Positions 12,844-16,887 of a DNA stretch of 64,000 bases are shown here, in pieces. Each line of letters begins with the position of its first letter. Within the stretch, counting starts at the first letter, position 1. The notes under the pieces are model-generated. The model had not been told where the DNA came from. It did no database searches and saw only the letters and a list, made by a program, of their open reading frames with translations. A program made the position numbers and the translations under genes. Location of the stretch: the NCBI RefSeq assembly GCF_030384885.1, contig NZ_CP128613.1. One strand, 5' to 3'. The DNA comes from Escherichia coli (GTDB lineage: Bacteria; Pseudomonadota; Gammaproteobacteria; Enterobacterales; Enterobacteriaceae).

Positions 12844-15800
12844 TTAGTCAAACGGCGGTGGGGCCAGCACTTCACGATTACCGTTGTGCCCCTGTTCGCT
12901 GACAATCCCTTGCGCTTCCATCTGTTCGATAATACGCGCTGCACGGTTATAACCAATGCGGAACTGACGCTGTACGCCTGAAATTGACGCTTTGCGTTTT
13001 TCAATGACAAACTGCACCGCCTGATCGAACAACGGATCCAATTCTTCAGCGCCATCGAAACCACCCGCACCACCTTCGCTTTCGCTGTCGGAGGTGATGC
13101 CGTCAACATACTGTGGGCGACCACGCGCTTTCCAGTCCTGCACCACGGCATGAACTTCCTGATCGCGAACAAAAGCACCATGAACACGTACCGGCAACGT
13201 GGAGTTCGGCCCAGAGTAAAGCATATCCCCCATACCCAGCAGTGATTCCGCGCCAGCCTGATCAAGAATGGTACGTGAGTCAATCTTACTGGATACGGTA
13301 AAGGCGATACGGGTCGGAATATTCGCTTTAATCAGACCAGTAATAACATCAACCGATGGACGCTGAGTTGCCAGTACGAGGTGGATACCCGCGGCACGGG
13401 CTTTTTGCGCCAGACGTGCTATCAGCTCTTCCACTTTTTTACCTACCGTCATCATCAGGTCGGCAAATTCGTCCACCAACACCACAATGTACGGTTCCTT
13501 TTTCAGCACCGGATGCTGCGCATCCATACTGTCACCCGGCTTCCAGTACGGGTCTGGAATCGGACGCATCATGCGATCGGCTTCAGCAATTTTTTCGTTA
13601 TAACCCGCCAGATTACGCACACCCAGTGCAGACATCAGTTTATAACGACGCTCCATCTCGTTAACACACCAGCGCAGCGCGTTGGCGGCATCTTTCATAT
13701 CGGTAACGACTTCCGTTAACAGGTGCGGAATGCCTTCATAAACCGAAAGCTCCAGCATTTTCGGGTCGATCATGATGAAACGCACATCTTCTGGCTGTGC
13801 TTTATAAAGCATGCTCAGGATCATCGCGTTCACACCGACAGACTTACCGGAACCGGTAGTCCCCGCAACCAACAAGTGCGGCATTTTCGCCAGATCGGCA
13901 ACCACCGGCTCACCGGCGATATCTTTACCCAGCACCACGGTTAATGGCGACGGATTATCGCGGAATTTGGCGTTATCCAAAACTTCGCGCAGATAAACGG
14001 TTTGTCGTTTTTTATTCGGTAACTCCAGACCTACATAGGGTTTGCCAGGAATAACTTCAACGACACGCACCGCCACCGTCGAAAGTGAACGGGCAAGGTC
14101 ACGAGACAAGTTAGAAATGCGCGCCGCTTTTACGCCCGGTGCCAGGTTTAATTCAAAGCGAGTGATAACCGGCCCCGGAGAGTAATTGACGACATCGGCT
14201 TTAATACGGAAATCAGCCAGACGCGCTTCCACCAGACGCGCCATTTGTTCAAGCGCAAAGGTATCTACCGGCTCCACTTCGCTCGGCGGCGGTGTCAGCA
14301 AATCCAGAGAAGGCAGCGGCGTCGTCGGTTTATGCAACGGACGGCTGTCGCCATTACGCATCAACAGCGGATGAAGCAGGGTATCCTGCGGCTGCGGCGC
14401 AACCGGTTGTTGTGGCTGCTGATACTGCGGCTGCGGCGCAACTGGCTGTTGCGGCTGCTGATATTGCTGCTGTGGTGCAACCGGCTGTTGCGGCTGCTGA
14501 TATTGCTGCTGCGGTGCAACCGGTTGTTGTGGCTGCTGATATTGCGGCTGCTGATATTGTTGCTGCGGTGCAATCGGTTGTTGCGGCTGCTGTACAGGTT
14601 CAACAATTGGCGTAAACAACGGTTCGTGTGGACCATCATCCAGCAACGCTTTCATTGGCGAAAATTCAAAATCATCCAGCGAGAACGGATTCGCCCCAGC
14701 CGGTTGTTCGCCCGAATAACGTTGCTGTTGAGTTTGAGCAAACTGACGAGCCAGTTCTGCCTCTGCTGCAGCATCTGTATCTTCTGCGTTGACTGGCACA
14801 TCATGTTGATACTGTTCGCCATAGCGTTGCTGCTGCGTCTGGGCGAACTGACGCGCCAGTTCATCCTGCTGCATCGCATCGATTTCATCATCGTTATACT
14901 GATCGCCGGAATCGTACTGATTGCGCTGGGCTTCACGGGCTTTTTCTTCTGCTGCACGCTGTGAGGGCAGCTTAATACCGTAAGACGCCAGTTCACGACG
15001 AGTTGGCACGCGGATGCGTTTCGGTCGTGGCAACTGCGGGCCAATCCCCTCTTTGACCTGCGGACGCGGTCCAGCGCTATTTGCCAGACTGAAAACTGGC
15101 GCGGCAACGGTTGCGGCAGCCCCCGTCGCCAGTGTCGCTTTTTTCACACCAGATGCCAGCGGAGAAACAGCGGCAGCGGCTTCTACTGGAGGTACTGCTG
15201 CAACAGAAGGTGCTTTCAGCGAAGATTTGATCGATTCCGGTTCTTTAACCGGTTCTGGAATCGGTTGATACCAGGCCGCAAGTTGTTCACGTTCACGGGC
15301 TCGCTTCTCTTCCACTTCTTCAAAATAGTAAAGCGGCGGACGCGTGGGTTTTGTCTCTTCTACAACGGGTTCAGGCTCCACAACAGGCTGCTGTTCAACG
15401 GGTTGCGGCTGTTGGTACAACGGCTCCTGAGCGGCTGGCTGCTGATAAGTTTGCTCAGTCTGGTATGTAGACTGTGGAGCAAAAGTGGATTGCTGCTCTT
15501 CGGCTTGCCAGGCGTTACCTGCCATCGATTGTTCTGGCGCAGGGGCGTAATACGGCTGTTGCGCAGACTGTTCCGCCGCAGTTGTGTAATACGGCTGCTG
15601 AACAGGTTGTTCCGCCGCAGGAGCGTAGTAAGGTTGTTGCACAGGTTGTTCCGCCGCAGGCGCATAATACGGCTGCTGTGGCTGTACAGGTTGTTGCAGC
15701 GGCTCATTATATTGCACTGCAGGCTGCGCATATTGTGGCTGCTGAGGGTAACCTTCCGGTGCAGGAGCAATAACCGGCTCTCCCGTTTGTGGCCCCGGTA

Positions 15801-16887
15801 CAGGCTGCCAGGCTACTGTAGGTTGCGCAGGTGGAACATCAACAGAGGCAACTGGCGGCGTCTGAGTCACAGGTTCAACCGGTGCAGCCCAGCTTTGTGT
15901 CGCCGTGGAAGCAGCAGCTGCTACAGCAACAGGTTCGGTAATTGGCGCACCGTTTAATAATGGATCGTATTCGTCATATTCTGGCTGCGTTGCACGATTG
16001 CCCGAAAAGAGGACGTCGTCAGGGTCGGCAGCCACACCGCGTGCAGTGTAGGTAATCTCTTCTTCATCATCCATCCGCTTACCGGAGAACAACGCAGCAT
16101 CTGTTTGCCGCCCCATCGGATTAATAAATTTTTCCGCCAACCGTTTACGACGCGCTAACGCGCCGCGAAGAATACGGGCACGGCGCGATTCATGCTGTTT
16201 GCCGTGATTTTCATCTTCATATTCTTCGTCGTCTTCATACTCATCTTCATCGACCCAGGTATCATCGCGACGGGTACGATTACTGGCGAAGGTGAGAATG
16301 TTTAAAATCCAGCCGCCAAGTTTTTCAGCAATGGTCACCCATGACCAACCGGTAAACAGTGTCAGGCCCGCCGCCCAAACGCAGAGCAGCGCAATAGTTC
16401 CCCCGCTACTGTGTAGCAGTGGTTGTAGCGTAGTGCTTAGTAAGCTGCCGATGACGCCACCGGAGGCAAAATACCAGATATCGTCAGCGTTGATTGCCGC
16501 CAGACCACAAGAGGTAAGGATGAGCGCCAAAACGCCAATGATGCGTAGCGAAACGGCAAAATAATCAATGTATTCGTCACTGGACTGATGACGCCAGGCA
16601 AACCAACAGCCGCCGACGATAATGACGGGAATGGTGTAAGCCATCACGCCAAAAATAAAGAACAGCGTATCTGCCAGCCACGCACCGGGCATCCCACCTA
16701 AATTATGGATAGGTTCATGCCAGGCCGTTTGCGACCAGCTGGGGTCCGAAGGGTTAAAGCTTAGTAAGGCAGCCATCAACCAGACGGCAAACAGGACAAT
16801 AAGGATCAGCAACGCCTCCAGAAGGCGGCGGCCGCTACTTAACTTTGTCAATGTGACTTCTTTGTCTTCAGTGTATTCCTGGCTCAA
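12844..16887 (-). CDS. ftsK: DNA translocase FtsK (N-terminal membrane domain, Pro/Gln-rich linker, C-terminal motor)
   Basis: ORF track 1347 aa; C-terminal Walker-type motor domain; linker with tandem PQ-rich repeats. Confidence 0.95.
14386..14595 (-). repeat. In-frame tandem repeats (about 36-bp unit, roughly 5 copies) in ftsK linker
   Basis: Translation shows reiterated [13 protein letters not shown] units; DNA shows near-identical reiterated units. Confidence 0.8.
15532..15681 (-). repeat. In-frame tandem repeats (about 42-bp unit, roughly 3.5 copies) in ftsK linker
   Basis: Translation shows reiterated [13 protein letters not shown] units. Confidence 0.8.

Follow-up and report, generated by a model that had tools for sequence, protein, structure and literature searches.

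ftsK in the window and the domains of its product

The window, by which we mean the whole 64,000-nucleotide stretch of Escherichia coli DNA that was analysed, carries ftsK on the minus strand at 12844..16887. The coding sequence of 4044 bp starts with TTG and specifies a protein of 1347 aa; it was taken from the list of ORFs and matches an annotated gene along its whole length. This gene is the ftsK of E. coli 2013C-4282 (WP_074501054.1), a strain from human stool in the USA, to which the window copy is 100% identical. When 5,426 complete E. coli genomes were searched by megablast, ftsK turned up in 5,425 of them and a fully identical copy in this one strain. Among drafts, contigs that encode exactly the window's FtsK protein number in the hundreds (P0286 on 296, P0287 on 242). 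According to the annotation, the gene order trxB-lrp-ftsK-lolA-rarA-serS is common to 2013C-4282 and K-12 MG1655, and ORFs matching lrp-ftsK-lolA-rarA are present in the window, which places the gene at its orthologous position. Eight of the ftsK matches in the 5,426 genomes lie on records labelled as plasmids.

We considered a divergent Escherichia species as the source of the window, as a single one of the 5,426 genomes was at least 99% identical to it over ftsK. This was rejected on the grounds that, outside the repeat arrays described below, ftsK shows 97.2-98.0% identity with ordinary alleles of E. coli (13 alleles with a backbone of equal length). Identity over the whole gene is low because of gaps and misaligned repeat units.

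Pfam searches placed four domains in the expected order, all far above the family cut-offs, identifying the product as an enterobacterial long-linker FtsK/SpoIIIE translocase. The N-terminal 4TM domain spans aa 20-191 (16315..16830, minus strand, as for all domains; PF13491, E = 5e-42). The alpha domain spans aa 858-958 (14014..14316; PF17854) and is followed by the P-loop motor at aa 966-1179 (13351..13992; PF01580, E = 9e-88) and the gamma domain at aa 1282-1342 (12862..13044; PF09397). Between the 4TM and alpha domains lies the Pro/Gln-rich linker FtsKL, aa ~192-857 (14317..16314). Directly after the membrane domain, an imperfect hexanucleotide repeat of TTCATC (seven copies by TRF, 16210-16251, minus strand) encodes an acidic stretch at aa 213-226. 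A single database record, the E. coli FtsK protein P0001 (1461 aa), has a 93-aa tandem duplication within the 4TM domain, which may stem from faulty assembly or may be real, and would then affect an essential domain.

Repeat arrays in the FtsK linker

Two arrays of 39-bp units, each unit encoding 13 aa in frame, lie within the linker. Array A (15523..15678, minus strand; aa 404-455) consists of four units. Array B (14383..14592, minus strand; aa 766-835) consists of five full units with the peptide QQPQQP[IV]APQ[QP]Q[YD] and one unit of 15 bp encoding QQPQY, which stands second; the array ends 22 aa short of the alpha domain. Both were delimited by TRF, by the register of the units, by a shuffle test and by the positions of published primers (ms06 for array A). 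TRF on the DNA returned a period of 39 for both, with 3.8 copies, 77% matches and a score of 182 for array A (15529-15675), and 4.2 copies, 90% matches and a score of 253 for array B (14387-14551, with overlapping hits extending to 14592). At a lag of 39, the self-match score was 91 in array B and 38 in array A. Three hundred codon shuffles never exceeded 33 within array B, 15 within array A or 15 across the linker as a whole. Since the observed scores lie far above those of the shuffles, both arrays are real.

An earlier note on this DNA had described two in-frame families of tandem repeats in the FtsK linker, and TRF, register and codon shuffles bear out that description. The unit sizes that it gave, 14 and 12 aa, were wrong: both are 13 aa, and both of the peptide strings it quoted have 13 letters. 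Its wording of near-identical DNA holds loosely for array B, where mean pairwise identity between units is 0.87, and overstates the likeness in array A, where it is 0.77.

The truncated unit of array B, CAGCAGCCGCAATAT, lies at 14539..14553 (minus strand). The same 15-mer was found in strains S88 and MS20655 at another position in the array, and a 15/24-bp sub-period is visible in one of the repeat families (D2). It equals a full unit from which the 24 bp between two copies of the 9-bp direct repeat CAGCCGCAA have been removed, and these direct repeats are present in units of other ftsK alleles. Loss of 24 bp between 9-bp direct repeats would thus account for the short unit.

A third repeat, which we call repeat C, had been overlooked in the earlier note; we present it as a new detail, together with the 24-bp deletion and the constraint on the unit peptide discussed below. 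It consists of two copies of a 14-aa motif, at 14821-14862 and 14716-14757 (overall 14716..14862, minus strand), placed 35 aa apart (a period of 105 bp). The two peptides are identical, and the copies differ by seven synonymous and no non-synonymous changes. The copy number varies, with four in the natural allele P0016 (1412 aa). The motif is doubled in a relative with 77% protein identity and is recognizable once in Proteus.

The arrays are overlapped by long antisense ORFs on the plus strand, one of 239 aa at 14245..14964 over array B with a nested one of 107 aa at 14292-14615, and one of 230 aa at 15265..15957 over array A. The earlier note had taken the long antisense ORFs to be spurious, and we agree. 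Real antisense genes were ruled out by the Leu/Arg-rich, low-complexity translations, by the strong purifying selection on the sense frame, and by a Pfam search with the ORFs of 239, 107 and 230 aa that matched no family. Such ORFs are an expected by-product of composition, because codons for Gln, Pro and Ala reverse-complement without stops.

Repeat number across strains and published typing loci

The gene of K-12 MG1655 also starts with TTG and has 3990 bp for 1329 aa. It carries two array A units and six full array B units and lacks QQPQY. The window protein is longer by 18 aa, the sum of 26 aa from two additional array A units, minus 13 aa for one array B unit fewer, plus 5 aa from QQPQY. 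The length difference from K-12 is entirely due to repeat number. Both lengths in the earlier note, 1347 aa for the ORF and 1329 aa for K-12, were right, as was its proposal that repeat-number variation explains the difference.

Comparison of many strains showed that unit numbers differ widely. All frequencies given here come from two ranked samples of 60 matches and one of 40, out of the 5,426 genomes. Among the 39 full-length matches in the ranked sample of 40, ftsK spanned 3951, 3990, 4029, 4044, 4068, 4071, 4095, 4107 or 4146 bp. These lengths are reproducible by lineage in complete genomes, with 3990 bp in K-12 lineages, 4029 bp in O157:H7 and 4107 bp in ST131. In 60 ranked matches, array A with its flanks measured 433, 472 or 511 bp, corresponding to two, three and four units at roughly a third each. 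In the other sample of 60, array B with its flanks measured 566, 605, 644 and 683 bp (five to eight units) in 1, 24, 26 and 4 matches, the remainder being the window's own allele of 581 bp and four partial alignments. K-12 derivatives and O157:H7 strains each showed one array state in these samples, and one ftsK backbone can carry several array B states.

We then dissected 16 alleles from complete genomes, which comprise ten protein lengths from 1316 to 1381 aa. The sequence outside the arrays measured 3678 bp in 14 of the 16 and 3681 bp in the other two, and all 16 are intact full-length ORFs that differ by exact multiples of the unit. In a wider set of proteins, array A ranged from one to four units and array B from five to 13, with proteins of up to 1446 aa. 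Long alleles are over-represented in this set, and many of its members stem from short-read drafts, where an array of 270-500 bp can be assembled wrongly. Array A did not exceed four units in 130 alleles.

Mis-assembly raises the question of whether most of the differences in length come from faulty assembly of repeats, true alleles being few. Some records do point this way, and at least two classes of artefact were seen. In CRE10 (NZ_CP034404.1) the ftsK of 4250 bp is annotated as a frameshifted pseudogene and has a garbled duplicate of the flank inside array B; we rejected it as a large expansion or truncation, the error-ridden duplicate indicating a noisy assembly. The nearby trxB of CRE10 is likewise frameshifted. 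Six proteins of 1407 aa (P0011, P0029, P0038, P0047, P0073 and P0296) all have three array A and 11 array B units on five different backbones, one of them identical to that of the window, and five of these proteins lie on contigs of 4,733,682-4,733,683 bp. Convergence of these alleles was rejected, since shared array lengths on different backbones at one genome size are what reference-guided consensus genomes would give, and their repeat number was probably frozen in this way. As a general account of the variation, artefact is nevertheless very improbable: well-studied complete genomes differ reproducibly (K-12, O157:H7, ST131), the 16 dissected alleles are intact and exact unit multiples apart, and gel-based and capillary MLVA have sized such differences without sequencing (PMC4553163, PMC8143711).

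A unit of 39 bp has been published for the MLVA loci ms06 and ms07, the latter being the same as CVN001, which belong to the schemes of Gorge et al. and Lindstedt et al. as used in PMC4553163 and PMC8143711. We mapped the published primers (ms06 and ms07 from PMC4553163, CVN001 from PMC4553163 and PMC8143711) onto the window. The forward (15769-15788) and reverse (15410-15429) primers of ms06 bracket array A without a mismatch. Those of ms07 map to 14833-14852, with one mismatch, and 14290-14309, and those of CVN001 match exactly at 14687-14705 and 14285-14304, in both cases on either side of array B. Array A is thus ms06 and array B is ms07/CVN001, a strain-typing feature that is already known. 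Both arrays have what defines a VNTR locus, namely a head-to-tail 39-bp unit, flanking published primers and a copy number that varies between strains. The ms07 forward primer has A where the window has G, four bases from its 3' end, and its site falls inside the first copy of repeat C. The CVN001 product in the window would be 421 bp, for which the published formula, (size - 250)/39, gives 4.4; this allele call is not an integer because of the 15-bp unit in array B.

Published allele ranges, 2-4 for ms06 and 2-8 for ms07 in Shigella sonnei, are close to the ranges found here, 1-4 for array A and 5-13 full units, counted differently, for array B. We see no essential difference from the E. coli/Shigella MLVA loci, of which the window allele, with four A units and five B units plus the 15-bp unit, is a member that is rare among complete genomes. 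PMC4553163 and PMC8143711, the two papers used here, do not name ftsK as the host gene; the placement in ftsK comes from our mapping.

A comparable locus is known from Salmonella, where ftsK contains a 39-bp VNTR named STTR7/SENTR2 (PMC2430564), also called a variable PQ repeat region (PMC8627665). Salmonella ftsK shows a 28-aa indel at aa 757-784 (PMC6137255) and in-frame deletions of 84 and 195 bp (PMC2430564, PMC6137255, PMC8627665), and in the one direct test of tolerance to length that was found, swapping the 84-bp indel left survival in egg white unchanged (PMC6137255). As published, the period of 39 bp and the position of the indel agree with array B (aa 766-835), and STTR7/SENTR2 is its putative counterpart in a different genus. 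The same Salmonella MLVA table lists a 45-bp VNTR in tolA, SENTR1 (PMC2430564), likewise a variable-number tandem repeat in a cell-envelope gene.

Proposed unit turnover, peptide constraint and the role of the linker

We are highly confident in an explanation in which the FtsK linker carries two in-frame 39-bp minisatellites, ms06 and ms07/CVN001, whose units would be gained and lost in a linker tolerant of such changes while the unit peptide is conserved. Of this, the analysis establishes the arrays, their variation between strains, their identity with the published loci and the constraint on the peptide; slippage and tolerance to length are inferences. At the division septum, the disordered linker connects the DNA-translocase motor of FtsK with the membrane anchor, and it carries the two arrays and the rarer repeat with a period of 105 bp. 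Misalignment of units, by replication slippage or unequal exchange between sister strands, would add or remove whole units. Since 39 is 13 times 3, each such event would keep the frame and change the tether by 13 residues. If the linker can vary broadly in length without harm, many alleles could coexist in the species, with selection conserving the peptide sequence of the unit. The window strain would then have a lineage-specific allele of four A units and five B units, with one further unit shortened by an internal deletion of 24 bp.

The patterns among alleles are compatible with this explanation. Protein P0294 (1334 aa) has the exact backbone and array B of the window and one array A unit fewer. 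Larger steps occur as well, as P0004 contains a block of two units repeated four times and P0006 a duplicated block of six units. Judged from sequence, the differences between alleles are whole-unit or in-frame sub-unit steps, a pattern that agrees with misalignment of direct repeats. Slippage or recombination is a plausible mechanism for the variation; allele patterns of this kind would look alike whether units change by slippage, by RecA-dependent unequal exchange or through the import of whole alleles by recombination.

Contingency loci usually build on tandem repeats within coding regions, and several array B states do occur on one backbone, so one could ask whether the arrays form a phase-variation locus that switches FtsK at high frequency. 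We find this scarcely credible. A unit of 39 bp never shifts the frame, and the 16 dissected alleles are all full-length. The identity of 77-87% between units disfavours slippage at high frequency, a single state was seen among the sampled K-12 derivatives and a single one among the O157:H7 strains, and FtsK has an essential N-terminal domain (PMC7794046).

Alleles whose combined unit number runs from 6 to 17 coexist, which under the minisatellite explanation argues that the length of the tether is loosely constrained. The peptide behaves differently. Between units of the same array, pS was 0.4-0.8 and pN 0.03-0.11, giving pN/pS of 0.05-0.17 (about 0.1). The units differ mostly at synonymous sites, and the unit peptide is therefore constrained. 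In the linker outside the arrays, pN/pS was 0.06 against K-12 and 0.06-0.10 against K-12, ST131 and O157:H7, and in the membrane and motor domains it was 0.00-0.04 in the same three comparisons.

The C-terminal linker of FtsZ is a disordered tether whose length counts for more than its sequence. The FtsK arrays may not fully fit such a description by length only, as their unit peptide appears conserved. According to reviews, the FtsK linker is unstructured, varies in length between species and is required for full activity, and it contacts FtsZ, FtsQ, FtsL and FtsI (PMC5357621, PMC7794046, PMC3870252).

Conservation of this kind could mean that the units are functional modules, each 13-aa peptide, together with the repeat C motif, binding a partner or adopting a structure, and that their number is tuned to the coupling with septum closure. 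The unit peptide is indeed kept at pN/pS of 0.05-0.17 in the face of heavily diverged synonymous sites, the copies of repeat C differ at synonymous sites alone, the linker beyond the arrays is constrained too, and reviews place divisome interaction sites in the linker. The ceiling of four array A units in 130 alleles would also suit a tuned number. On the other side, a low pN/pS could stem from selection on composition or disorder and not on a specific motif, the wider allele set is biased towards long alleles, and totals of 6 to 17 units are found in apparently healthy isolates. The closest of the FtsK representatives (P0121, 77% identity, from a related genus) has only degenerate PQ..Y repeats at both array sites, and Proteus FtsK has a polyQ tract instead at the site of array B. 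We consider functional modules unlikely overall. A more specific proposal sees conserved short linear motifs in the 13-aa units and the duplicated motif, serving for instance as docking sites for divisome proteins or as a polyproline-type spacer; it is quite doubtful.

The arrays were ruled out as a general feature of FtsK, as the 13-aa unit is absent from all 150 representative FtsK proteins (50% identity level) that were searched, only three of which have strong tandem peptide repeats. In Proteus, full-length members of one 90% cluster (P0123 and P0271-P0284) measure 1215, 1217, 1219, 1221, 1223 and 1225 aa. These protein lengths suggest a separate variation of microsatellite type at the site of array B.

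The earlier note was correct in its inference: repeat number differs between strains, and the reference protein has 1329 rather than 1347 aa. What it rediscovered are established typing markers, and the feature is real but ordinary. The practical value is small and lies in confirming two classic MLVA markers inside an essential cell-division gene. The 1329 aa of K-12 FtsK are one among many natural lengths, and where an assembly is short-read or reference-guided, its repeat numbers are not to be trusted. As a modest scientific lead, the constraint at the peptide level argues against the linker being a tether indifferent to sequence. If the units were indeed short linear motifs, their number would be a selectable dial that tunes the coupling of DNA translocation by FtsK to septum closure across E. 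coli lineages.
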